Source of the DNA: a virus
Length of the DNA: 64,000 nucleotides
Virus record (IMG/VR): IMGVR_UViG_3300049729_000039
Strand: one strand, 5' to 3'
Of the stretch, positions 10,061 through 56,862 are shown piece after piece. A model generated the notes under the pieces. It saw nothing but the letters and a program-made list of their open reading frames with translations, was not told where the DNA came from and searched no databases. The translations under genes were made by a program, and so were the position numbers. Numbering within the stretch: the first letter of the stretch is position 1; each line of letters begins with the position of its first letter.

Positions 10061-10294
10061 TTAATCCCGTGATTTTATAGAAATCTTCTCAAAGGGGTTA
10101 TATACTTGCTGACAAGTAATTAAACAATCATCTTTCATTTCCAAAGTAGTGTGATTTTTTGTCACAAGGGTAGAATTTCCCTTTACCAAGAAAGTTTCGT
10201 TTATGTTATCAAGGTTAATGACGTTTTCTGCACCTTTTACATAATGCCCTTCAGTGCTTGAAGGGGCTACATTGATTTTTTCTGCTGTTTTCAT
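10061..10294 (-). CDS. Hypothetical protein
   Basis: ATG at 10294 has the aaattATG context. An alternative ATG at 10315 would overlap the upstream gene by 11 nt. Confidence 0.45.
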   Translation of the reverse strand: MKTAEKINVAPSSTEGHYVKGAENVINLDNINETFLVKGNSTLVTKNHTTLEMKDDCLITCQQVYNPFEKISIKSRD

Positions 10295-10304
10295 AATTTT
10301 AATT

Positions 10305-12845
10305 TTAATATTCATATTTCATTAATTCAAAATATTTATTGCCGGATATTGACACCAAATCTTTGATATCATTTTCATTCATTTTTTTAAGTGTTATTTT
10401 ACCCTCATCAGTTAATACGGTAGAAAATCTTTCCCCTTGTCTTTGAATGTATTTTATATTATTAACGATTTTTTGGGGAATTCTATACAACGACGCAATA
10501 GCGTCTTTTGCATTATTGAACTTAGATTCACAGGAAAGAAAAAACATACGGTCAGTACTAGGGCAGAAACATCTGACAAAGGAAAGATTTATTCCATTTA
10601 TATTCCCCCTGAATAGAGTATATACCCCAATGTTCATGCCTTTTGTGGTTCCAGCTAAAAACTGTTTATCTTTTATGTCGGTATATGAATCAACTTCCTT
10701 TAAGTTTTCTGATATAAACCTAAACAGATATTCCCCTCCATATTTTTCTTCGAAATATGCCAATATAGCAGATTTCACTTCCTCATTACCTTCTTTTGCC
10801 CAATCAGTAAACTCATATGTCTTATTTTCTAATTTCAAAAATAACACTTGAGGTATAGGCACACCTTTTATAGCGTAATATTTGTAATTTCCAAACTCAT
10901 AAGCAGGCCCGTGAACATTGTGAAGATCCCCACTGCTATCTCTGTGAAAATATTTTGCATTTTTTGTAACAAAAACAATATTCTTGAATGCTACGCAATA
11001 GCCAAAATTAATATCAACTATCTTTCTATACTGATTGAAGATCCCAGATGCATTTAAATTAAGACATTCTTTATCAAAGAAATCATAAAATGATAACCAT
11101 GCTGTATCAAATCTATCCATGAAGATGGTAGGAGAGAAATATTCAACTTTTATAGCCCTGACCTGATCCCCGACCTGATCCCTGACCTGATCCCAGACCT
11201 GATCGCTGACCTGAGCCCCGACCTGATCGCTGACCTGATCCCAGACCTGAGCCCTGACCTGAGCCCTGACCTGATCGCTGACCTGAGCCCAGACCTGAGC
11301 CCAGACCTGAGCCCTGACCTGATCGCTGACCTGAGCCCTGACCTGAGCCCTGACCTGATCGCTGACCTGAGCCCAGACCTGAGCCCCGACCTGAGCCCTG
11401 ACCTGATCGCTGACCTGAGACCTGACCTGATCGCTGACCTGAGCCCAGACCTGATCGCTGACCTGAGACCTGACCTGATCGCTGACCTGAGCCCAGACCT
11501 GAGCCCCGGCCTGATCGCTGACCTGATCCCCGACCTGAGCCCTGACCTGAGCCCTGACCTGAGCCCAGACCTGATCGCTGACCTGATCCCAGACCTGATC
11601 CCTGACCTGAGCCCTGACCTGAGCCCTGACCTGATCCCCGACCTGAGCCCAGACCTGAGCCCTGACCTGATCGCTGACCTGAGCCCAGACCTGAGCCCCG
11701 ACCTGAGCCCTGACCTGATCCCAGACCTGATCGCTGACCTGATCCCTGACCTGAGACCCGACCTGAGCCCCGACCTGAGCCCTGACCTGATCCCAGACCT
11801 GATCGCTGACCTGATCCCTGACCTGAGACCCGACCTGATCCCCGACCTGATCGCTGACCTGAGCCCTGACCTGAGCCCTGACCTGATCGCTGACCTGAGC
11901 CCTGACCTGAGCCCCGACCTGAGCCCTGACCTGATCCCAGACCTGATCGCTGACCTGAGCCCCGACCTGATCGCTGACCTGAGCCCCGACCTGAGACCTG
12001 ACCTGATCGCTGACCTGAGCCCCGACCTGAGACCTGACCTGATCGCTGACCTGAGCCCCGACCTGATCGCTGACCTGATCCCAGACCTGATCCCAGACCT
12101 GATCCCTGACCTGAGCCCTGACCTGAGCCCCGACCTGATCGCTGACCTGAGCCCCGACCTGAGCCCTGACCTGATCGCTGACCTGAGCCCTGACCTGATC
12201 GCTGACCTGAGCCCTGACCTGAGCCCCGACCTGAGCCCTGACCTGATCCCAGACCTGATCGCTGACCTGATCGCTGACCTGAGCCCCGACCTGAGCCCCG
12301 ACCTGAGCCCAGACCTGATCGCTGACCTGAGCCCCGACCTGAGACCTGACCTGATCGCTGACCTGAGCCCCGACCTGATCGCTGACCTGATCCCAGACCT
12401 GATCGCTGACCTGAGCCCCGACCTGAGACCTGACCTGATCGCTGACCTGAGCCCTGACCTGAGCCCCGACCTGAGCCCAGACCTGATCGCTGACCTGAGC
12501 CCTGACCTGATCGCTGACCTGAGCCCTGACCTGATCGCTGACCTGAGCCCTGACCTGAGCCCCGACCTGAGCCCTGACCTGATCCCAGACCTGAGCCCCG
12601 ACCTGATCGCTGACCTGAGCCCCGACCTTCATTAAGGCGATTGCAATATAGAGGTCAACAGGAGATTCCAACAGAACCACGATAGGGTGATCGTTACCGA
12701 TTTTAAATGTTTGATAAAACCAATGCATATACTCAATTAGCTCATTAGTTTTAATTTCGTTAGTATTGTTTAATACAGCATCAATATATTTTTGACGATA
12801 CTCAGCTAGTTTATTGATTTGAATTTGTGATAGTGAATTTATCAT
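10305..12845 (-). CDS. 846-aa protein: 74-aa N-terminus, 122 x (x-x-Q-V) tetrapeptide repeats, about 283-aa globular C-terminal domain
   Basis: Single uninterrupted ATG ORF. The repeat has exact 12-nt periodicity and stays in frame for 1.47 kb. The C-terminal domain contains [26 protein letters not shown] ... [21 protein letters not shown]. Confidence 0.8.
11154..12623 (-). repeat. 12-bp tandem array, about 122.5 units (plus strand GACCTGA[G/T]C[C/G]C[C/T/A] types)
   Basis: Unit types (coding strand): GGG/AGG/TGG/AGC + GCT/GAT/TCT + CAG GTC. The CAG-GTC part is invariant except for one GCC near 11508. The array is GC-rich within an AT-rich genome. Confidence 0.95.
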
Positions 12846-16286: not shown

Positions 16287-16589
16287 TTACAATACTAAAT
16301 TTGAATTTTCAACAAATTGATTTTCGTGGTAAAGTTCTGATTTATGAACGTGTCCCAGGTTTGCACATTTTGCGTAATTATGTCTCCCGTGCCCTGATTC
16401 AATTTGAACAAAAACAAACCCTTTTATTATTTTTATTTGTCCCACTCCGCCCGATCCCATTGCTTTTTCCTCTATATTGTCAAAACCTATTTCTTTTTCA
16501 CGATCAATAACACGTTTATTGGCATTCACGATGTTCATAATTGATTTATATGAACCGCTTTCTTTGATTGTTTCTTGAATAGTTTTCAT
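16287..16589 (-). CDS. Hypothetical protein (N-terminus paralogous to 15774..16172)
   Basis: Shared N-terminal 20 aa; ATG ORF. Confidence 0.5.
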   Translation of the reverse strand: MKTIQETIKESGSYKSIMNIVNANKRVIDREKEIGFDNIEEKAMGSGGVGQIKIIKGFVFVQIESGHGRHNYAKCANLGHVHKSELYHENQFVENSNLVL

Positions 16590-17363
16590 GGCTTTAAATT
16601 TTATGATTAATTACCTAACCCCATATAGAAAAAAAAGATAAAACCTGCTTTGTTGTTTGCTTTTACTGTTGTATTTATAGGCTGTTGATTTTGCCCCTAT
16701 TTCAGATAGTCCATGTTTTTTGCAATATTTATAAACTTGCATCCAATTCATTTTTCCGAACATTTTAATTAAGTTTTTCATGGTTTAAAATATTAATAGG
16801 TTAATAATTTAAAAGTATGTATAACTGATTAGCTGATAACGAATGAATAAATAAAGTATATGCAATTGATAAAATAAGAATAGCTAATATACTTGTTATT
16901 GTGTTCGGGTAACGGTTTATAAGTGCTTTCATTTTACTTCAAGTTTTAAAATTATATTTGAAAGGGTTTCGGGAAAAATAACAATTCCTTTGAAGATTAC
17001 ATAAACATCTTTTGTCTTTTCTAATTTACGTAATTCAGGGAGATCAAAAAACGTAATTAGCCGTTCCGTTGTTTTACCTTTATTTATTGTTAATGTTTTC
17101 ATGTGATATAATTTTAAAATGTTTGAATTAAGAATACTGTAAATTTAATATTGAATTTAACGTTGTCAACAGTTTTTGTTATTTATAATGAAAATAATTT
17201 GATTATGTATATCAATTAGTTAGGTCATTGTTTAGACTAAATAAAGATAAGGAAGTCAAATATATAGAGTAAAATGTAAAAAAGTCGCCCCTTTTTTGAC
17301 CAGTGCACAAAAAAACGTAAAATAAACATTATCTACATTATTTATATTTAATATAAATAACAC

Positions 17364-17394
17364 TTGTATAATAGATTAAAAAGAACTATCTTTG
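17364..17394 (+). promoter_or_regulatory. Orphan Bacteroidota-type promoter (TTG-N20-TATCTTTG) with no downstream ORF
   Basis: cacTTGtataatagattaaaaagaacTATCTTTG. The next roughly 370 nt on the + strand are A-rich and ORF-free. Confidence 0.5.
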
Positions 17395-17723
17395 TATTTG
17401 TTCATTGAATATCTGAAAAAAAAACGACAATAATATAGATAGGGAATTACCCGACCAAAAAACGTACATTGAAACGTTGAGAAGTTAAAAGGCCAAAATA
17501 CCAGGAAACCGGCTAAATTAAAACCAGATCAAAACAGTGATCTAAATACTGAGGTGATGCAATCAGATAAAACAATCTAACAAATGTTAATCCGATTAAG
17601 GTATAAAGAGACTACAAACAGAGTAAACAAGCTAAAAGCACACTAATATCGTTTTAACAGTAAAATTAAACAGTATAACAGTGAAGCAATTTAGTTTTAT
17701 AAGATTGTAGAGAGGTTAAGACA

Positions 17724-17767
17724 TAAAAAAAGCCCTCATAGTTGAGAGCTTACAATATTGAGAGGGT
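17724..17767 (-). terminator. Possible terminator after gene 17774..17977
   Basis: ccctc/gaggg stem with a large loop, followed on the minus strand by CTTTTTTT. The stem is weak. Confidence 0.35.
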
Positions 17768-17773
17768 GGAAAA

Positions 17774-17977
17774 CTAATTACCAATGAATGAGTCAAATGT
17801 TTTCGGGTATGCTCTTTTTAGATACTCCCTATCAAGCCAGAAAAATATCTGTGCTTTCTTTGTCTTACTTGGAAATTGGGGATTAACCTCAACCCGACAT
17901 TTTTTGTCTGAACGATAAAGGATATTTTTAATTTTATATCCATTATGCAATGCTGAATTTAATGTTCTTGGTGTCAT
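17774..17977 (-). CDS. Hypothetical basic protein
   Basis: 67-aa ATG ORF followed by a U-tract hairpin. Confidence 0.5.
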   Translation of the reverse strand: MTPRTLNSALHNGYKIKNILYRSDKKCRVEVNPQFPSKTKKAQIFFWLDREYLKRAYPKTFDSFIGN

Positions 17978-24647: not shown

Positions 24648-25067
24648 TCATTGGTTTTCTTTTAAAATTTGATTAACCTTGTTTGCGTAATATCTGAAGT
24701 CGCTGTCAAACTTAAACTTCAGTTCGTATTCTTTCTTGTAAAAACTGATCGTAGAGTGATCTCGTTTTAATAATCTGCTAATTTCTTTGTCGGGTATCTT
24801 TTCCTTAAAACACCAGTTAGCGAAAATAAGCCTAGCGTATGCGTTATATCGTTCTTTACCTCTTTTTGATAAATCTGTAAGGTTTACATTCAAAACGCTG
24901 TGTAGTGACCTTAAAACAGGGTCTACGTCAACGACTGGACTAAATCTACCTGTGATTTTAATCCTCACGTCCGAATAACCGATTCTTTGGAAAAGTTCCG
25001 TTAAAAACCGTTCTACCGATTCTGGCGGGACTTCTCCTTTTGAGGTTGCTGTTATGGTTAGGTTCAT
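24648..25067 (-). CDS. Second DnaA domain-IV-like HTH protein
   Basis: YARLIFANWCFKEKIPDKEISRLLKRDHSTISFYKKEY parallels DnaA domain IV (..aR.iamyl......s...Ig..l.rdHsTv.ha). Confidence 0.55.
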   Translation of the reverse strand: MNLTITATSKGEVPPESVERFLTELFQRIGYSDVRIKITGRFSPVVDVDPVLRSLHSVLNVNLTDLSKRGKERYNAYARLIFANWCFKEKIPDKEISRLLKRDHSTISFYKKEYELKFKFDSDFRYYANKVNQILKENQ

Positions 25068-25711
25068 TTGAATTTAAACCCAGTTAGTTTTATGATAGTA
25101 GCAACAGGAACCTCGTTGCCGTTCTTGCCATTGCCGGAATCATCAATGGTGTTGTTGAATAAAAAGGCTCGATACGTGTGCTGGGCTTTAATGTATAATA
25201 CTTTCCACATCTGAGTTGGAACATACACTCTACCTATCATTTTTAGTTCTCCGATAGACCCACACCGAACATAAACAGAATCAACCGTACTCGCTATGTT
25301 GCGTGTTATTTTCTCTAAATTTTCCCAACTTCCTGCATTAAATGCGTGATACTGAGCAGCCATGTTCGAAAAGTAAAAACACTCTCTTTGGACTTGATCT
25401 GTCTGACACAGGTTATCATCGCACGGATCATTATGGCCTTTGTCAAACCCTGACTTTAGATAATCTTTGGCTAAATTTGTTTCATCTGGTAATAGCGGAT
25501 CTGGGGCAAACGTATTATTTCTTTTCAGTGGTTGCATACATTTTACTTTAGCTTTGGTGTCCCACCACATAACAATTACGGGTCTGTGCATAGAAATACT
25601 GTACACCGTAGTGTAGTTTGTGTGTTTGATTCTTATAGTGTCAGTCTTTGGAATCTGACCCAAGCAGATGTTGGAAATAATTAATAAAATTAATAATAAT
25701 AAGGTTTTCAT
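25064..25711 (-). CDS. Secreted DNA/RNA non-specific endonuclease (Serratia NucA / Endonuclease_NS type)
   Basis: Signal peptide MKTLLLLILLIISNICLGQ. FDKGHNDP fits the DRGH active-site motif, and SNMAAQYHAFNAGSWENLE fits N..PQ....N.g.W..lE. Confidence 0.7.
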   Translation of the reverse strand: MKTLLLLILLIISNICLGQIPKTDTIRIKHTNYTTVYSISMHRPVIVMWWDTKAKVKCMQPLKRNNTFAPDPLLPDETNLAKDYLKSGFDKGHNDPCDDNLCQTDQVQRECFYFSNMAAQYHAFNAGSWENLEKITRNIASTVDSVYVRCGSIGELKMIGRVYVPTQMWKVLYIKAQHTYRAFLFNNTIDDSGNGKNGNEVPVATIIKLTGFKFK

Positions 25712-26339: not shown

Positions 26340-27083
26340 TTACAAATTATTTTCGTATTCATTTATTGCTTTAAAGATTTGATGTGCCACTTGTGGGACT
26401 ATGGCGTTACCTGCTCCGTGAATGGCCTGCTCAGCCAATCTTCTGGGAAACCCATAATGTTCACTACACACGAAGGGCATGGCGTTCCTTTGAATAAAGT
26501 CGACAAACCTATTTGTTTTCCTATTTCCAATCTCCGTTGGTTGCAATTGTTCCAATATATTCCCCTGTCCCGAAAGTCCGATGCTGACGGAGTAGGCAAT
26601 AAACCAAACCCTGTATCTTTCGTGTTCTGCGCCAACCGACGAAGCTGGAATAATAACCGGTTGTATTTTGTACCCCTCGTTTTCCAACGATGAACATATA
26701 AACTCGAACACTGCTGAAAATTTTGATGAAGCAATAGCAAAAACGTTTTCGGCAACGATCCACCTGGGCTTAATCTCTCTGATCGCTCTAAGCATCTCTG
26801 GAAATAAATATCTTTCGTCGCTTTCTCCAAGCTGTTGTCCTGAGTTGCTAAAGCTCTGACAAGGAAATCCACCTGTGAGAACATCAATTCTGTTTGCATA
26901 TTTTGTAAAATCAGTTGTTTTTATATCTTCAAATAATTCTGCATTAGGCCAATAATATTTCAGCACTTTTTGTCCGAATGGATTTATCTCACAATGAAAT
27001 AAATTATCCCACCCCGACCATTCAGCAGCCAGATCGAAGCCACCAATACCAGAAAATAAACTTCCATGTGTTAGCTGTGTCAT
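26340..27083 (-). CDS. DNA (cytosine-5)-methyltransferase, compact form
   Basis: Motif I is SLFSGIGGFDLA, motif IV is GGFPCQSFSNSG, motif VI is IVAENV, and motif X is GNAIVPQVA. ATG at 27083; the track start at 27104 is TTG. Confidence 0.9.
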   Translation of the reverse strand: MTQLTHGSLFSGIGGFDLAAEWSGWDNLFHCEINPFGQKVLKYYWPNAELFEDIKTTDFTKYANRIDVLTGGFPCQSFSNSGQQLGESDERYLFPEMLRAIREIKPRWIVAENVFAIASSKFSAVFEFICSSLENEGYKIQPVIIPASSVGAEHERYRVWFIAYSVSIGLSGQGNILEQLQPTEIGNRKTNRFVDFIQRNAMPFVCSEHYGFPRRLAEQAIHGAGNAIVPQVAHQIFKAINEYENNL

Positions 27084-27181
27084 AATATCCGTTTTTTGCC
27101 ACAAATTAGCTTGTGTAATGAACGATTAATCCAAATTGATATATAGATACCACTTTGACTTTATCGTGTCTTAAATCGAAG

Positions 27182-38569: not shown

Positions 38570-38738
38570 AGCATCATTTCTAATAGTTCGTCAACAATAG
38601 TTTCGGGTATGTAAACCGTTGAATCGGGTGGTTGATTATTAATTCGTCTCAGACTGTCCGTGAACTCAAACCAATTCTTCCATCCGTTAATCACAGCCCA
38701 GCAATTTTTTACCTCTAAAGAACTCTTAAATTTTAACA
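38566..38738 (-). CDS. Hypothetical protein (57 aa; below the track cutoff)
   Basis: My translation is MLKFKSSLEVKNCWAVINGWKNWFEF.... Both ends overlap neighbours (ATGA junction). Confidence 0.4.
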
Positions 38739-39488
38739 TAGTGAGTTTAGGTTTAGTTCAAATTTATTATCATTGAAATTAAAATGAGCAAAATCTTGGA
38801 AAAAATAAGCAGCCCAAAAATCATACACGTGAGCAGCTTCTTCTGCTGTTTTAAAATATCCTAAAAATGTATCTTTATTATTTGATCTTATCCTTGCCGA
38901 GTATAACCCAAATTCCATTTTATATGATACGCCCTTAAATGTGCTTGATGATGGAGTAGATTTTTTCAGAGCATTCCTTGTGTTTTGTGGGCATGTACAT
39001 ATTCTTAAATTACATTTTCTGTTATCCAATCCATTATGATTTATGTGATCAATATGAATACTTTTATCCGTAATTCCCAGTATTAGTCTATGCAGTAAAG
39101 AAGACTCTCCATTTTTTAGTTTTCTTGAATCCCTAGATGCGTACCATATTTCACTTTTATTGCCACACTTTATAGCATGCCACTTAAATGATGAAACTAT
39201 GTCATAATCATCCCTATCTATTAGTGTCCATTTATTTTTGGATAATTGAATCCATACTGAATTATCATCAATATCATCAGGCCTAATTGGAAAATTAAGT
39301 TTTCTCCCTAATTTATTATCAATAACATATTTATCATACTCCCTTGCAGCTTCTATTTTTTCATAAAAATAACCTAAAATAATGTTTTTGAAATTAATCA
39401 TTATGTGTGATATATACATAGTTCCACACTTATTTAACATGACTCCTATATATTTATCATTATCAATGACAACCTTTTTCCTTATCAT
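38733..39488 (-). CDS. HNH homing endonuclease with AP2-type DNA-binding domains
   Basis: HIDHINHNGLDNRKCNLRICTCPQN is the HNH core. FKGVSYKMEFGLYSARIRSNNKDTFLGYFKTAEEAAHVYD is AP2-like, as is the N-terminal YIGV...ILGYFYEKIEAAREYD. Confidence 0.8.
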   Translation of the reverse strand: MIRKKVVIDNDKYIGVMLNKCGTMYISHIMINFKNIILGYFYEKIEAAREYDKYVIDNKLGRKLNFPIRPDDIDDNSVWIQLSKNKWTLIDRDDYDIVSSFKWHAIKCGNKSEIWYASRDSRKLKNGESSLLHRLILGITDKSIHIDHINHNGLDNRKCNLRICTCPQNTRNALKKSTPSSSTFKGVSYKMEFGLYSARIRSNNKDTFLGYFKTAEEAAHVYDFWAAYFFQDFAHFNFNDNKFELNLNSLC

Positions 39489-51085: not shown

Positions 51086-51159
51086 GGGTCACTAGCTCAG
51101 TTGGTAGAGCATCTGTTTTGCAAGCAGAGGGTCTTGAGTTCGAATCTCAAGTGTATCCA
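51086..51159 (+). tRNA. tRNA-Ala(UGC)-like, with a 1-nt bulge in the acceptor stem
   Basis: D-arm is GCTC-AGTTGGTA-GAGC. Anticodon arm is TCTGT-TTTGCAA-GCAGA (anticodon TGC at 51119-51121). T-arm is TTGAG-TTCGAAT-CTCAA. The acceptor pairs GGGTCAC with GTG(T)ATCC and keeps G3-U70 and A73. No CCA is encoded. Confidence 0.6.
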
Positions 51160-51889: not shown

Positions 51890-52645
51890 ATGATTGATAG
51901 GCACGTTTTCGAGAAGCAGTACATGGATCTGGACACTGATGGGCGCAACTTACCCCTCAATGCCACGAGGGAGGTGTATAACATGCGCAGTTCAAACACT
52001 TCATCCAACGGAAAAGGGTGTATGGAAGCGGTTAAAAGCAACGTAGACATCACCACACTCGATTTAAACGTTGGTCATCCTGGGTCTGTTCCTACCGTCA
52101 CCTATTACAATTCTACTCAATCACAGACGTTCGTTCGTAACAACTGCGGGTCTGGATACTCTGGAAGCACAGTTACCTATACAGTCCCCTACGCTACATA
52201 TTCGTCTACGATAAGTCAAATAGCAGCAGACCAGATGGCACTTGATGATATATCAGCAAACGGACAAAACAACGCCAACTCAACAGGAACCTGTACCATT
52301 ATTCCTAGTGGGACACTGAGTGCATATTTCATCAAAGGTGATGGAGCACCCGGTGGTTATCTTAAAATATCCAAGAACGGAACGCTGATAATCGACATCG
52401 AAAGATACACTGGTTCTGATTCGTTCTCGATAACCGACGGTGATGCAATACATATCGAAGCGTGTTCAGCAACAAGTTCGGGAGTAGGTAACTCTATCAG
52501 TGTAGGAATCTACTCTTCTGTAAGCGGAGAACTGTGGTCTACGACACTTTCAGGATATAATCAAGTAATCACACACGACTACACATATCACACGGCAGAC
52601 GGTACCATTTCAGTCCAGTGCGGTGTTCCAATATTATACTCATGA
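51890..52645 (+). CDS. Tail/virion protein with a Cys-flanked SQ..A....A module
   Basis: 251-aa ATG ORF. RNNCGSGYSGSTVTYTVPYATYSSTISQIAADQMALDDISANGQNNANSTGTC resembles a module I recall from Bacteroidota surface/phage proteins. Unverified. Confidence 0.55.
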   Translation: MIDRHVFEKQYMDLDTDGRNLPLNATREVYNMRSSNTSSNGKGCMEAVKSNVDITTLDLNVGHPGSVPTVTYYNSTQSQTFVRNNCGSGYSGSTVTYTVPYATYSSTISQIAADQMALDDISANGQNNANSTGTCTIIPSGTLSAYFIKGDGAPGGYLKISKNGTLIIDIERYTGSDSFSITDGDAIHIEACSATSSGVGNSISVGIYSSVSGELWSTTLSGYNQVITHDYTYHTADGTISVQCGVPILYS

Positions 52646-55600
52646 GAACAATAGGTAAAGCACAGGACATAGAAAACAAGGCACTGATAACGTTCTTGGA
52701 CGGTGGTATTATACAACGTATCTGGTCAAACGGCAGGATAGAGAGGATAGCCTATTATGAGTACTTCAACTTCGGGGTGATAAATCATGCCAACGTAATT
52801 GGTGATATACTTTACTGGACTGACGGAGAAGAGCTTGATATGTCTCTTGGTTCTTTTAACCCACCACGAAAACTAAACATAGTCAGAGCAAGTGCGCTTA
52901 CCAATCAATACTTAGCAAATAAACTACCCACATATGACCCTGCCTATAATTATACTATAGTTCCCCCTACCCCTGCACCGAAAGTAGAATATGAGGGCAA
53001 CCTTTATGTAGCAGTTCAGGATTCAACAGGACAAACACCTTCTAACACTTCTCTTTACTGGCGACTGGCACGTCCTAAATTTGTCACTGGGGAGATAGTA
53101 GGGTTTGATGGTAATTGTTTTCAGTGCCTACAGGACACCACCACGCAAGATCCTACGCACTCCGCTAACTGGAAGCTGATAGAATACAAACACTACGATG
53201 CTTTTACCTTACAGAACATAATGAGGGGTAAGATACCTCCACTACAGCCTACATGGTCGGTTATTACAGACGGAACAATTAAGAAAAACGAGCTTCGAGA
53301 CAAGATATTCCAGTTCCGTTCAAGATTTATCTATGATGACAATGAAAAGTCCACATGGAGTTGTATGTCTACACCCACACTGCTAAACTTAGAATATGAT
53401 GGCTACTATTCTGATCCTTGCATTAATAATACAATCCTACTCTCGTTACAAACAGGGACGAAAGAAGTAGTCAGGATTCAGATAGCCTGTCGGATAAATA
53501 ACGGAGACTGGGTACTGGTGGATGACATACATAAATATACACCAACGTTTGGAGTATTAATTGCATCTAATATAAATTATACCTACACTTTCAAAAACGA
53601 CATTCAGACCCTCCCGCTCGACCAGACAGAGACCAATAACCTTTTTTCTTATACTCCACAGATATCCAACTGTCAGGAGTTAATTCAGGGAAATAGGTTG
53701 GTGGATGCTGACATCACAGAGGGATATGACTATCCAGACGTAAACTGTACGCTTACACCACGCTATGCCACAGTACCACAGCCAGTAGAAACGGCTCTAT
53801 CAGTAAGTTATATTTCCACTGCCTATGTGTTTGTTATGCCTACTTTTGATTCTTTAATAAAAGTATCTATACTGAAATTTATCATACCATTAAGCACCAC
53901 AAATAAAATAACTATTCAGTATTTCCCGAAGAACGAAACCACGATTGGACAGGTTTTAGACGGAATAGTATTGGAGTTTGCTAAAAATGGAGTGACTGCC
54001 ATAAAGGTAGGATTAACATTAAGCGTGACGATACCAAGCAATGGCGCTGCTTTGTTCTCGCTAATAAACGTACCAGATAGGATAGGTGGATTGAAGTATT
54101 CCTCCACACTTAATCCGGGGATCGTGTTTTTTGATGAACTTAAAAGATCATGTTCTGTTTATAAACTCCCAAAAATTGACATTCAATCCGTAAACGACCA
54201 AGTAGGAGGAACCACTGTTTCTTTTCTACCTGTTCCTGTGATTGACTTTTCTCTGGCGGGTACGCCTCCAATTCAGGCTTATTCGTATAAGTTCTGTCAT
54301 GTAGATAATCGTTATGCTTTTTTGGATATTGCTATTCCTACTACCTATATAGTAGCTGACTCCATAAAAAGGATAGTAAGGATAAATCTCGACAGTGCAG
54401 TGTTGGATTACAGAAATGCCAACCCTGATTCCGTGGTACAGCCGTGGACATGGACGAAAGGTGACAGGATAAGACTTCTTGGTTACTCTAACTACGACTC
54501 TATCGAGTACTTCACTTCTGAATATGACTTAGAATTATCGGCTTCCGTGGTAGGCAGTGCCACTACGTATTCTTTTCCTTACCAGAACATCGACTATTCC
54601 AGAAACCTTTTGGTAGAGGTATACAGAGACGTACCGGCTAACGTAGACCCAACCGTTTATTTCGAGTGCGGTGAAGAGTACATAATAACTAACCCCAGGA
54701 CGCCAATAAGAGCGTATGGCACGACTTCTGGTACGATTGATATGTACGATGCCTTCCAGAAAAACAGCACGCAGGCGAACGCATATCTGTACGCATGGAT
54801 GTATTCTTCATCACTGGGAGAGATACAGATATTCGATGTGTCTGTTCCTAATATGCCACAGCTTTTAAGTTCTACTAACACCCCTATCTCTAATCCGAGG
54901 TATATGGTGGTATCAGGAAATTATGCTTACACTTCATACACCCAGACCTTGCAGATTTGGGACGTATCCAATATTGCCAATCCTGTAGTAGTATCTTCTA
55001 TCACCTTAGATTATGATGACTCCAAGACGGTAAGATTGAATGCCGGATATGCCTACATAGTGAGTGGAAACCACGCTAAGCTGACTGTTATAAACGTCTC
55101 TACACCTTCTTCACCTGTGAAATACACTGCTATCTCCCTGACAGGTGGAGCAGGTAACGAAGATATCTGTTTTCACGGTACCAAGGCTTACTCTTCAGGA
55201 GTACTGACAGGCACTATTGACGTGATAGACATATCTAACCCGCAGATACCAGTACTGGGAACTCCTATCACAGGGCTAAGTAGTCCGAGAAAACTATGTA
55301 TCTCTGGTGACTACCTGTTCGTAACCAATAGCGGTGCTAATGAGTTAAGGATATTCAACATCTCTGGAACCCCCTCATACGTCTCTACGGTAGGTGGACT
55401 AAACGACTGTTACGCAGTGAGTGTCCAAGGGAAATATGCTTACGTGGTCAACTACGGATCTAATACTTTAAGTGTTATTGACATCTCAAGTATTACGTCT
55501 CCAGTGGTGGTTGGAACGGCATCCGTAGGTACCAACCCCTATGACTTGGCCGTTGCAGGACAGTATGTATATGTGGCCAACTTCACCTCGATGACTATTT

Positions 55601-56862
55601 CAGTAGTAGATGTATCGAATCCTACCGCACCTAATACTATAGCCACTACAGCAGCCGTAGCTAGTTATTCCAGTTTAAGTGTGAGTGGAATATCTACATT
55701 TGGATCTATAGAGAGCAGAAACTACTCTGACCTGTTTAAGTCCGACCAAGGGGACTTGCAAAGAACAGCAGTTTATTCTTTAGAACTGAAACGTAAACGA
55801 ATAAAAGGATTAAAACGTTGGTCGGGTGTTTATCTACAAAACACTTTCAAAAACGATCTTAATCAAAATGATTACGCTGACTACGACGAATCTAACGAGA
55901 CATTTGGTGGTATAACTCGTATATTTGAATACGGAGACATACTTAAAGTGTTACAGTCAGAGAAAGTCACAAGTTATTATTTGAGCAAGGCCGTACTTAA
56001 TCAAGCAGCACAATCCGGCACAGAGATAGTGTCTACCTCTACTCTCGTATTGGGTTCTATGCACCAATCCACAGAGAGATATGGATGCCAGAACGCAGAA
56101 TCACTTGTACAAAATGGTACTACATCTTATTATGCAGACGTCAACAATGGGTGTTTCATCCGAGAAGGAACAAGTGAACCAGTGCCTATCTCTGATAACG
56201 GAATAAAGAACTACACAAAAGCACTTTTCGATCAGATTAAGAACTACTATCCAAGAATTGTAGGCGGTTACGATCAGTCTAAAGGTGAGTTGTGGTACAC
56301 TATCTATGCCTATATGCCAACAGGTGAGATAAAAATAACTCTGATGTTCAACGAAGAAGAAAAGACATGGAAGTCTTATTTTGACTTCGTTGATGTTGGT
56401 GGTAATATTCCAGAGATGTACGGAAGCATAGGTCAGGTGATGTTTGCCTTTGTACAGGGTATTACATGGCAACATGAATCGGGTACGGATTATTCTAATT
56501 TCTTTGGAATTGACGTACAGCCAAAGGTAAATATCGTAGCAAAGGGAAACGGGAAATCTGTTTTCAATTCGGTGAAACTTATCAGCAACAAAAACTGGAA
56601 GTGTGATTCAGTATTAGTATTTGATAATAATACATATCAAGCTGGAATGGTTAGTAAATTACCCGCATTTGTCAAAAAAGAGGGGTGGCTATACGCTCCA
56701 TTTTTGAGAGATATGACTACATCATCACCAACGCCCACCAATAATGATCTTTTTAATGGCAGGTCTTTGAGGGGGATGACCGCAGAGTTTGAATTACAAA
56801 CTATTGAATCTGGATTAACACAGCTTTATGAGGTAGAAGTGACAACTACGCCTTCTTTATAA
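52642..56862 (+). CDS. Large tail protein (1406 aa) with an internal LVIVD-type beta-propeller
   Basis: ATG at 52642 in an ATGA overlap with the upstream stop. About 7 repeats of the type YAYV.n.g.n.L.V(I/F)D(V/I)SnP..P.. are encoded at about 54880-55640. Confidence 0.7.
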   Translation: MRTIGKAQDIENKALITFLDGGIIQRIWSNGRIERIAYYEYFNFGVINHANVIGDILYWTDGEELDMSLGSFNPPRKLNIVRASALTNQYLANKLPTYDPAYNYTIVPPTPAPKVEYEGNLYVAVQDSTGQTPSNTSLYWRLARPKFVTGEIVGFDGNCFQCLQDTTTQDPTHSANWKLIEYKHYDAFTLQNIMRGKIPPLQPTWSVITDGTIKKNELRDKIFQFRSRFIYDDNEKSTWSCMSTPTLLNLEYDGYYSDPCINNTILLSLQTGTKEVVRIQIACRINNGDWVLVDDIHKYTPTFGVLIASNINYTYTFKNDIQTLPLDQTETNNLFSYTPQISNCQELIQGNRLVDADITEGYDYPDVNCTLTPRYATVPQPVETALSVSYISTAYVFVMPTFDSLIKVSILKFIIPLSTTNKITIQYFPKNETTIGQVLDGIVLEFAKNGVTAIKVGLTLSVTIPSNGAALFSLINVPDRIGGLKYSSTLNPGIVFFDELKRSCSVYKLPKIDIQSVNDQVGGTTVSFLPVPVIDFSLAGTPPIQAYSYKFCHVDNRYAFLDIAIPTTYIVADSIKRIVRINLDSAVLDYRNANPDSVVQPWTWTKGDRIRLLGYSNYDSIEYFTSEYDLELSASVVGSATTYSFPYQNIDYSRNLLVEVYRDVPANVDPTVYFECGEEYIITNPRTPIRAYGTTSGTIDMYDAFQKNSTQANAYLYAWMYSSSLGEIQIFDVSVPNMPQLLSSTNTPISNPRYMVVSGNYAYTSYTQTLQIWDVSNIANPVVVSSITLDYDDSKTVRLNAGYAYIVSGNHAKLTVINVSTPSSPVKYTAISLTGGAGNEDICFHGTKAYSSGVLTGTIDVIDISNPQIPVLGTPITGLSSPRKLCISGDYLFVTNSGANELRIFNISGTPSYVSTVGGLNDCYAVSVQGKYAYVVNYGSNTLSVIDISSITSPVVVGTASVGTNPYDLAVAGQYVYVANFTSMTISVVDVSNPTAPNTIATTAAVASYSSLSVSGISTFGSIESRNYSDLFKSDQGDLQRTAVYSLELKRKRIKGLKRWSGVYLQNTFKNDLNQNDYADYDESNETFGGITRIFEYGDILKVLQSEKVTSYYLSKAVLNQAAQSGTEIVSTSTLVLGSMHQSTERYGCQNAESLVQNGTTSYYADVNNGCFIREGTSEPVPISDNGIKNYTKALFDQIKNYYPRIVGGYDQSKGELWYTIYAYMPTGEIKITLMFNEEEKTWKSYFDFVDVGGNIPEMYGSIGQVMFAFVQGITWQHESGTDYSNFFGIDVQPKVNIVAKGNGKSVFNSVKLISNKNWKCDSVLVFDNNTYQAGMVSKLPAFVKKEGWLYAPFLRDMTTSSPTPTNNDLFNGRSLRGMTAEFELQTIESGLTQLYEVEVTTTPSL

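Follow-up and report, generated by a model that had tools for sequence, protein, structure and literature searches.

The large gene and its repeat array

The DNA analysed here, referred to as the window, is a 64,000-nucleotide (nt) stretch of the virus record IMGVR_UViG_3300049729_000039 from IMG/VR. It belongs to a phage with genes for a large terminase, a portal, virion proteins, a primase-helicase and an Erf-like annealing protein. On the minus strand of the window lies a gene for an 846-amino-acid (aa) protein in which 122 consecutive tetrapeptides, the array, separate an N-terminal from a C-terminal domain (N-domain and C-domain). This large gene is followed by a small conserved gene, called the partner. 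The features of the locus are listed below.

10305..12845 (-): whole gene (N-domain, 122-unit tetrapeptide array and C-domain), an 846-aa open reading frame (ORF) with an ATG start
12624..12845 (-): N-terminal domain, aa 1-74, helix-helix-strand-helix, from alignments and AlphaFold2
11160..12623 (-): array, 122 x 12 nt, aa 75-562, unit NNG-NNT-CAG-GTC, from Tandem Repeats Finder and a unit count
10308..11159 (-): C-terminal domain, aa 563-846, alpha/beta, from alignments and AlphaFold2
10752..11114 (-): stretch matching Pfam DUF6745, aa 578-698, profile positions 13-123 of 206, from a Pfam scan
10536..10574 (-): invariant motif R758-C-x-C-P-S-x-D-R-x-F-x-L770, from alignments
10305-10307 (-): stop codon of the large gene
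10061..10294 (-): partner gene, 77 aa, ATG at 10294; the mechanical ORF reaches 10315

An initial annotation, made from the letters of the window, had described an 846-aa ORF with 122 uninterrupted x-x-Q-V units between a 74-aa N-terminus and a C-terminus of about 283 aa. This description was confirmed, with the units at residues 75-562 and a C-terminus of 284 aa. The units are SDQV (34), RAQV (27), GAQV (22), WDQV (11), WAQV (10), RSQV (6), RDQV (5), GDQV (4), GSQV (2) and SDQA (1). The same count bears out the nine dipeptides at the two variable positions, the single Q-A exception and the rule that Ser at position 1 always precedes Asp, all of which had been noticed earlier. The 10 peptide types are encoded by 10 DNA unit types, and the Q-V codons are always CAG-GTC. 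Tandem Repeats Finder reported the region 11154-12628 with a period of 24, 61.5 copies and a score of 1963, which is far above chance. The G+C content of the array is 0.52-0.59 compared to 0.31-0.33 in the flanks, and its net charge is -17. In the N-domain, residues L5, Y44 and P54 and the motif ..WFY..P.VV..ESP are conserved in our two family alignments (A1 and A2). These alignments contain 25 invariant columns, including R758, C759, C761, P762, S763, D765 and R766. Judged from its sequence, the large gene looks translated.

Stop codons are also absent within 11160-12623 from the coding strand's +1 and +2 frames and from one of the reverse frames. Slippage into another frame would still give a long repeat protein (GLRS... 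or GSGQ...), and no start codon opens these frames. A sigma-70-like site at 12870-12841 was rejected as a promoter because it overlaps the start codon.

The large gene sits in a long minus-strand series of small early genes. On the same strand, the primase-helicase gene is found further upstream, and about 1.5 kb downstream comes the Erf-like gene, an arrangement that agrees with the early/replication block assigned to the gene in the initial annotation. DnaA_C-like and glucosaminidase genes are also found downstream, and the window further encodes a C5 methylase, a non-specific endonuclease and an HNH-AP2 protein.

Domain, fold, family and partner of the large protein

The initial annotation had assigned the C-domain to Pfam DUF6745, and this was correct. 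When aa 564-846 were scanned alone, Pfam PF20530 (DUF6745) matched with 34.8 bits (E 1.3e-8), above the curated gathering cut-off of 27 bits. Coverage is partial, taking in only profile positions 13-123 of 206 rather than the full domain, and the C-terminal half in the window's subfamily is divergent and of larger size. Canonical members such as P0358 cover positions 13-206, and a canonical member matching the full profile with 99.7 bits has 56 array units. When all 846 aa were scanned, the true DUF6745 match vanished and matches to YpjP (41.4 bits), EnY2 (36), HEAT_PSME4_mid (29.2), MADF (27.8) and Trigger_C (23.2) rose above their cut-offs. We rejected these five, together with the NCBIfam matches to GvpQ and trigger factor, as false positives driven by the repeat. 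For genes of this kind, automatic annotation reports false Pfam domains and loses the true one. PHROGs, NCBIfam and PADLOC gave nothing informative for the large protein, and no mention of DUF6745 was found in the literature searched.

A word-indexed search with the C-domain returned 363 homologues, mostly of 350-500 aa. A full hidden Markov model (HMM) scan of 1.84 billion cluster representatives, clustered at 50% identity, gave 8,006, 4,340 and 622 representatives at E<=1e-3, 1e-10 and 1e-30, respectively. All family members share an N-domain of about 75-90 aa as well as the C-domain. The family is very large and unstudied, and most of its carriers are phages or prophages. Period-4 arrays stand between the two domains in 74 of the 120 best homologues and in 94 of 138 representatives. 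The initial annotation had linked such tetrads to bacterial proteins with this domain; the tetrads are indeed there, while their carriers are overwhelmingly phages or prophages and not ordinary bacterial genes. The longest complete arrays elsewhere have 59, 57, 56 and 51.5 units. With 122, the window's array is about twice as long as the next and is the longest seen. Arrays of 37 units are present in the complete chromosome of the isolate Chryseobacterium sp. HR92. An array is missing altogether from many full-length members (for example, P0002, P0007 and P0009).

The arrays follow a common grammar. The fourth residue is V, I or L and the third Q, N, S or E (or K, T or A); the second is small (A, D, S, N or G) and the first highly variable. 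One branch uses W, R and G plus E, S, M and L at position 1, and an xSQL/xSEL branch with a different N-domain uses D, R, Y, G and S. Positions 3 and 4 are constant inside one protein and differ from protein to protein. One gene (L038:4978-6837, from IMG/VR 3300020036_006249) carries a compound array, an x-S-E-L run followed by a [VI]-A-N-[LF] run, so two unit families can share one array; its close relative L039 has the x-S-E-L run alone. The 401-aa protein P0292 has the family's N-part, a 19-unit array and the start of DUF6745, followed by a DNA polymerase III alpha NTPase domain (122.8 bits). Either a real fusion or a gene call that is chimeric or truncated could explain it.

Homologues were found at 41 IMG/VR loci and on 78-kb freshwater phage contigs built of dozens of tiny ORFs. 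One genome from each of 185,579 species in GTDB yielded 13 loci, most of them in Bacteroidota or metagenome bins. The homologue in a Niabella prophage has YopX, RusA, DnaN, PriCT primase and HNH genes as neighbours, and SNF2 and DnaB helicase genes lie near the homologue on the P0305 contig. In the Microcystis phage Ma-LMM01, gp174 (DUF6745, 54 bits) is located between DNA polymerase and UDG/clamp-loader genes, and its neighbours gp173 and gp178 are expressed in the middle (replication) class (PMC5780444). Neither megablast of the locus nor tblastn of the C-domain gave a match among 50,697 GenBank phages. The Microcystis phages were reached only when a homologue was used as the query in a relaxed search (E about 1e-2), and no relative was detectable in other cultured phages.

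The repeat-free homologue P0002, which is 56% identical, was modelled with AlphaFold2 using 66 aligned sequences. The result is a single alpha/beta model that holds both the N- and C-parts, with a predicted local distance difference test score (pLDDT) of 91.5 and a predicted template modelling score (pTM) of 0.75. The N-domain is predicted with a pLDDT of 88-96. These single-chain scores suggest that the N- and C-parts pack together. If they do, the array is an insertion that leaves and re-enters the same globular body and not a 70-nm tether joining two ends. The array is placed where the final helix of the N-part gives way to the first helix of the C-part; in repeat-free members, a loop of about 24 residues occupies this site. 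Foldseek of the pLDDT-91.5 model against the PDB found no relative (best E 0.63), and a PDB sequence profile search was empty. Against BFVD, Foldseek recovered Ma-LMM01 gp174, the only significant match (E 1e-13), and one fragment from an uncultured phage. The core fold lacks a solved relative.

Confidence is much lower in the array. The full 846-aa model draws it as six helical segments with segment pLDDT of 41-79; values are 72-86 beside the globular parts and 41-68 in mid-array. We rejected a canonical coiled coil, since the period is exactly 4.0 over 488 aa with no heptad or hendecad hydrophobic period. With this exact period, the stripe of Val residues would drift by about +40 degrees per unit and misfit a canonical coiled coil. 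A registered antiparallel hairpin was also rejected because mirrored charge complementarity did not reach significance (P=0.22). Charge tends to alternate from one unit to the next (lag-1 autocorrelation -0.23), and there is a weak enrichment of D(i)-R(i+3) pairs (P=0.015). The very long regular rod or solenoid proposed in the initial annotation is therefore not established: the segments are predicted at low confidence, the hairpin test is negative and the period does not fit a coiled coil.

The partner was found by clustering same-strand ORFs across all fetched loci. In 56 of 58 loci, a protein of 74-99 aa is encoded directly 3' of the large gene. In the window, an ATG at 10294, which is likely the start codon of the partner, lies 10 nt past the stop of the large gene, and the two genes are very probably co-transcribed. 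The partner consensus is NVAPSST.GHfv...LD...ETF.VeG.S.L.TKNHTtL....DCLITCQ.VYNPF.kmfEKSrD. Residues A10, S13, G16, H17, H48, L51, Q62 and V64 are invariant, and the protein ends in Asp in every case. Conservation is higher in the partner than in the large protein. A search with the partner gave 922 homologues of about 77 aa each, unnamed and without Pfam domains. Searches of Pfam, PHROGs, PADLOC and the PDB with the partner gave no informative match. The best PDB lead, Pur-alpha repeat III, was rejected as insignificant (E 0.97), and hhalign ruled out that the partner is a duplicated piece of the large protein.

More distant family members adjoin a longer partner of 109-128 aa with the C-terminal motif GDV...GE(V/I)(S/T)GHxH...QxxYxP...D. 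It lies downstream of the family genes in L004 and P0305. In Ma-LMM01, it is gp175 (123 aa) and lies upstream of gp174. The P0305 neighbour and gp175 both belong to phrog_27831. By hhalign, the profile of the short partner matches the P0305 neighbour with E 3.5e-4 over 64 columns, aligned up to the terminal Asp. Direct profile comparison of the short partner with gp175 was not significant, and the link between these two is therefore transitive. gp174 itself (phrog_31813) shares with the window's protein the 'CPST' core of the C-domain motif, which is also present in P0305, along with placement in a replication module and an adjacent small GHxH...QxYxP...D partner. Unlike the window's protein, it has no tetrapeptide array, and its partner is upstream and longer. 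Since the distant pairs have been kept together, the pairing is old and points to a two-protein unit in which the partner looks obligate, and the large protein and its small partner may act as a complex.

Array turnover across phages and assemblies

Other assemblies of the same phage were used to examine the array independently. Four contigs (L059-L062) carry the downstream ORF of 84 aa and a C-domain identical to that of the window (284/284). Coming from this 3' side, they stop within the array after 85, 57, 53 and 4 units. Five 5'-side contigs also stop within the array, after 40, 9, 2, 2 and 2 units, and the N-domain is identical in four of these five independent contigs. L059 has the window's unit order except for the absence of one copy of a tandemly duplicated block of 6 units (72 nt). 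The unit order of L062 deviates upstream of about unit 70, and L066, the contig with 40 units, agrees with window units 1-29 and diverges afterwards.

In this way, units 1-29 and units 32-122 of the window recur, with their order preserved, in assemblies made independently from several samples. The array is therefore not an assembly artefact, a possibility that had been raised in the initial annotation. Block-level polymorphism of the array exists between samples of this phage. Because all nine of the other assemblies break inside the array, the total of 122 units comes from the assembly of the window alone. A second assembly across the entire array was not obtained, the exact 846-aa product had no match in a collection of 15 billion proteins, and exact and degenerate DNA pattern scans for the junction of N-domain and array found no match in the metagenome and IMG/VR collections. 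Contig ends inside arrays are common in general, occurring in 9 of 9 other contigs of this phage, 13 of 41 IMG/VR loci and 5 of 13 GTDB loci. Since contigs end inside arrays, databases probably understate array lengths, and this gene is a point at which phage genomes are split. Arrays thus fragment phage genomes in metagenomes, as with every other assembly of this phage.

To describe how the arrays change, we compared the DNA of 33 of them. The mean number of alleles at nt 1-6 of the unit was 2.7, 1.7, 1.15, 1.45, 1.6 and 1.06, and at nt 7-12 it was 1.0-1.12. Variation is confined to nt 1, 2, 4 and 5, and nt 3 and nt 6-12 are nearly invariant. The 182 DNA unit types translate into 172 peptide types, and each peptide unit has a single spelling in 27 of the 33 arrays. 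The spelling of Q-V varies by phage (CAGGTC, CAGGTT, CAAGTT, CAAGTC or CAAGTG). With the DNA homogenised inside arrays and spelled in a phage-specific way, homogenisation must far outpace point mutation, so that neutral variants are swept out. All 33 arrays have a higher G+C content than their flanks (mean 0.51 vs 0.33). W, R and G are the exact set encoded by NGG, and D and A are encoded by GAT and GCT; one-base steps therefore suffice for this residue alphabet. The pattern of replacements suggests that selection maintains a mixed composition at the two variable residues.

Repeat number is hypervariable across related phages. Four members (P0019, P0020, P0021 and P0022) have N- and C-domains that are 100% identical and arrays of 2, 5, 5 and 12 units. 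Relatives with 95-97% identity in the N-domain and 88-95% in the C-domain have 8-20 units. In the window, identical adjacent units are rarer than expected (9 vs 20.9, P=0.0006), and 8-unit strings recur about 28 units apart, which indicates growth by large block duplication. Array length and unit order change much faster than the flanks, by in-frame gain and loss of blocks. We infer that unequal recombination or replication slippage drives this turnover. A diversity-generating retroelement was rejected, as the variation is not adenine-specific: the A of CAG is fixed while G/T and C/G sites vary. No reverse transcriptase was found among the ORFs scanned, which did not include every ORF of the window.

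Possible roles of the array, and other features of the window

The closest parallel to the window's protein is gp54 of mycobacteriophage Tweety, which it resembles in architecture. In gp54, unique N- and C-terminal regions surround 40-48 repeats of an A-A-x-x tetrapeptide (PMC2884959). Its 12-bp unit is invariant at third codon positions and varies only at first and second positions, and its array forms a G+C-rich core that is visible in a genome scan (PMC2884959). Tweety gp54, Che8 gp57 and PMC gp51 have 48, 26 and 15 copies, and the authors note selection for variation as well as the absence of the gene from a close relative (PMC2884959). According to a later review, which cites Dedrick et al. 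2017 (Nat Microbiol 2:16251), mutants escaping the defence formed by gp29/gp30 of the Phrann prophage map to Tweety gene 54 (PMC9262239). According to the same review, these mutants alter the repeat number up or down, giving rise to the idea of a mutationally 'tunable' counter-defence (PMC9262239).

The window's protein is likewise an early-region phage protein in which unique N- and C-terminal regions flank a long tetrapeptide array of 12-bp units. It also has W and G among its variable residues, a G+C-rich core and invariant third codon positions; in the gp54 sequence that we fetched, the variable residues are G/W/Q and S/Y. Copy number differs in very close relatives in both, here as 2, 5, 5 and 12 units and a 6-unit indel. 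Unlike the x-x-Q-V unit of the window, the A-A-x-x unit of gp54 places its variable pair last, and gp54 has flanks of 140 and 50 aa with no DUF6745. The window's family is a second, unrelated and far larger family that behaves like Tweety gp54. Three elements of this picture, namely the conserved partner gene, the hypervariable copy number and the Tweety gp54 analogue, go beyond the initial annotation.

Other repeat proteins are more distant parallels. As described in PMC2884959, region VR2 of bbp36 in Bordetella phage BPP-1/BMP-1 has 9-20 tandem in-frame repeats in a non-essential gene, with a 24-bp unit made of a 19-bp repeat and a 5-bp spacer. By that description, VR2 is alike in being an in-frame tandem repeat of variable copy number and unlike in its unit and unrelated sequence. 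Pentapeptide repeats and transcription activator-like (TAL) effector repeats are similar to the array in having near-identical units in which a few positions hold all the variation, and the small-polar-aliphatic order of the window's unit resembles the A-(D/N)-L of pentapeptide repeats. However, the period is 4 here as opposed to 5 or 34, there is no match to Pfam Pentapeptide, and the array is predicted to be helical, unlike the pentapeptide beta-helix. Since unit order is not conserved in close relatives, a positional code like that of TAL effectors is argued against.

We tentatively favour, with somewhat less than even confidence, the reading that the locus holds a real early phage gene with an N-domain, a variable tetrapeptide array, a DUF6745/'CPST' C-domain and a partner of about 77 aa, and that its product has a tunable role in host interaction by analogy with Tweety gp54. 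Under this reading, unequal recombination or slippage would cause in-frame gain and loss of blocks of 12-nt units, and selection would keep a near-neutral surface of mixed W/R/G x D/A on a spacer that is helix-prone and of low complexity. The spacer would project from the globular body, with the large protein and partner forming a complex. A change in repeat number would then re-fit the protein to a host or prophage defence target, and the 122 units would be an extreme of the tuning range. The narrower claim that the array is the mutationally 'tunable' element of a host-interaction or counter-defence protein is possible, and on balance we regard it as rather doubtful, with the analogy to Tweety gp54 as its basis.

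Several results weigh against a tunable role in host interaction. Alignment A1 showed no homology to Tweety gp54 by hhalign (E 0.78 over 8 columns). The resemblance is therefore only architectural and evolutionary, and probably convergent. Tweety gp54 also lacks a partner of the 77-aa type, gp55 not being such a protein, and counter-defence has been shown for Tweety gp54 alone. Sequence searches of PADLOC, PHROGs, NCBIfam and the PDB, and fold searches of the PDB, gave no link to known defence or counter-defence. Up to one third of the sampled members have no array, some of these being fragments. With so many members lacking it, the array is not needed for the core function. Some of the copy-number differences could be assembly collapse; the arrays of P0019-P0022, at 24-144 nt, are within the span of a single read. 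A helical array is itself a weak prediction. Lastly, the steady replication/recombination neighbourhood fits a replication-linked role equally well.

That role, as a replication-linked scaffold, is the main rival to the counter-defence reading, although we consider it unlikely as well. The DUF6745 body and the partner would be an accessory of replication or recombination acting on DNA or the replisome, and the W/R-rich periodic array a multivalent scaffold that binds nucleic acid or protein and possibly helps to gather replication factors; its length would tune valency and not the evasion of defence. In its favour, the gene pair is found in replication/recombination modules of unrelated phages (the Niabella prophage, Ma-LMM01 with its middle-class neighbours, the SNF2/DnaB locus and the window), and position 1 is mostly W/R, or Y/R in the xSQL subfamily, interspersed with G/S/D. 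Aromatic residues and Arg mixed with G/S/D are the composition of multivalent 'sticker-spacer' sequences. However, the large protein has no recognisable DNA-binding or enzymatic domain and the net charge of the array is negative rather than basic. The arrays are dispensable in many members, and such hypervariable copy number is unusual for essential replication factors. A compact, conserved two-gene module on Bacteroidota prophages could also be a cassette that excludes competitors, by superinfection exclusion or an abortive-infection-like defence, and hypervariable regions are frequent in conflict systems. This is improbable, since the pair matches no PADLOC model, has no toxin-like domain and is embedded, co-oriented with its neighbours, in the lytic early/replication operon (also in the lytic Ma-LMM01) rather than placed like a moron expressed in lysogeny.

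The remaining accounts are far less probable. The repeat might act as DNA, with the peptide as a by-product, for instance as iterons or an intragenic origin as in lambda O, as a recombination hotspot or as a protein-binding array. In favour of such a role, the 12-nt units share an invariant CAGGTC core and extend over 1.46 kb in a replication region, and the array is G+C-rich relative to the genome, like all of the arrays examined. We nevertheless consider it very unlikely: the unit DNA varies by phage (CAGGTC, CAAGTT, AATGTC, TCTGTC, CAGTTG and others) while the peptide grammar and 12-nt frame are conserved, the arrays are always in frame and stop-free, all variation within an array changes an amino acid, and many members have no array. 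A structural rod or beta-solenoid on the virion or cell surface, which takes up the rod or solenoid of the initial annotation, is slightly less likely still. It draws on the strict periodicity, the invariant aliphatic residue and the formal resemblance of A/D-Q-V-x to a pentapeptide repeat (A-D/N-L-x-x) minus one residue. Yet the gene belongs to the early block and is encoded on the strand opposite the terminase-distal structural genes, the array is predicted to be helical and not beta and has no Pfam pentapeptide match, Asp occupies the would-be inward position in 45% of units, and repeat-free homologues exist. Least likely of all is an assembly artefact or a decaying pseudogene. Only the window spans the array while nine other contigs break inside it, and the exact protein is absent from the 15-billion-protein collection; against this, units 1-29 and 32-122 recur in independent assemblies of several samples, the reading frame stays open for 2.5 kb, and Chryseobacterium sp. 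HR92 has its 37-unit arrays in a complete chromosome.

If the analogy to Tweety gp54 is true, tunable tetrapeptide arrays are a widespread device of phage-host conflict and not a mycobacteriophage curiosity, found in a family of at least 8,000 sequence clusters. A broader extension, which we offer as speculation and think unlikely, is that thousands of phage lineages, mostly phages of Bacteroidota but reaching to cyanophages, may carry a two-protein module with a recombination-tunable tetrapeptide 'dial', convergent with Tweety gp54. The partner would serve as effector or adaptor, and its two invariant His and C-terminal Asp might bridge a possible metal site with the C-x-C of the large subunit. 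The arrays would, in addition, be a systematic and unrecognised cause of broken phage assemblies. The handles gained for further work are the conserved gene pair, cultivable carriers (Ma-LMM01 gp174/gp175 and the prophages of the isolates Chryseobacterium sp. HR92, C. echinoideorum and Niabella sp. CC-SYL272) and a core fold with no solved relative.

A few other features of the window were recorded. The stretch 16580-17780 is A+T-rich (G+C 0.27-0.29), contains no ORF of 60 aa or more and shows a local GC-skew reversal. A 22-nt motif, GTTTTCATGGYTTAAAATWTTA, occurs in it three times (16582, 16774 and 17095), and its copies overlap ATG start contexts on the minus strand. This stretch could serve the early operon as a regulatory region or as an origin. 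The C5 cytosine methylase ORF at 26340-27104 (-) covers the first half of the Pfam model alone (positions 4-168 of 324) and is possibly a methylase that has been split or truncated; about 630 nt downstream of it follows the DNA/RNA non-specific endonuclease gene at 25064-25711 (-). The protein encoded at 38733-39488 (-), about 400 nt upstream of the large terminase gene, has weak HNH_3 and AP2 matches, both under the Pfam cut-offs, and is possibly homing-endonuclease-like. In the structural module, a 1,414-aa protein at 52618-56862 (+) has LVIVD repeats and a beta-propeller (lactonase-like) region and is probably a tail fibre or receptor-binding protein. A single tRNA gene, tRNA-Ala (TGC), lies at 51086-51158 (+) within the structural gene block.

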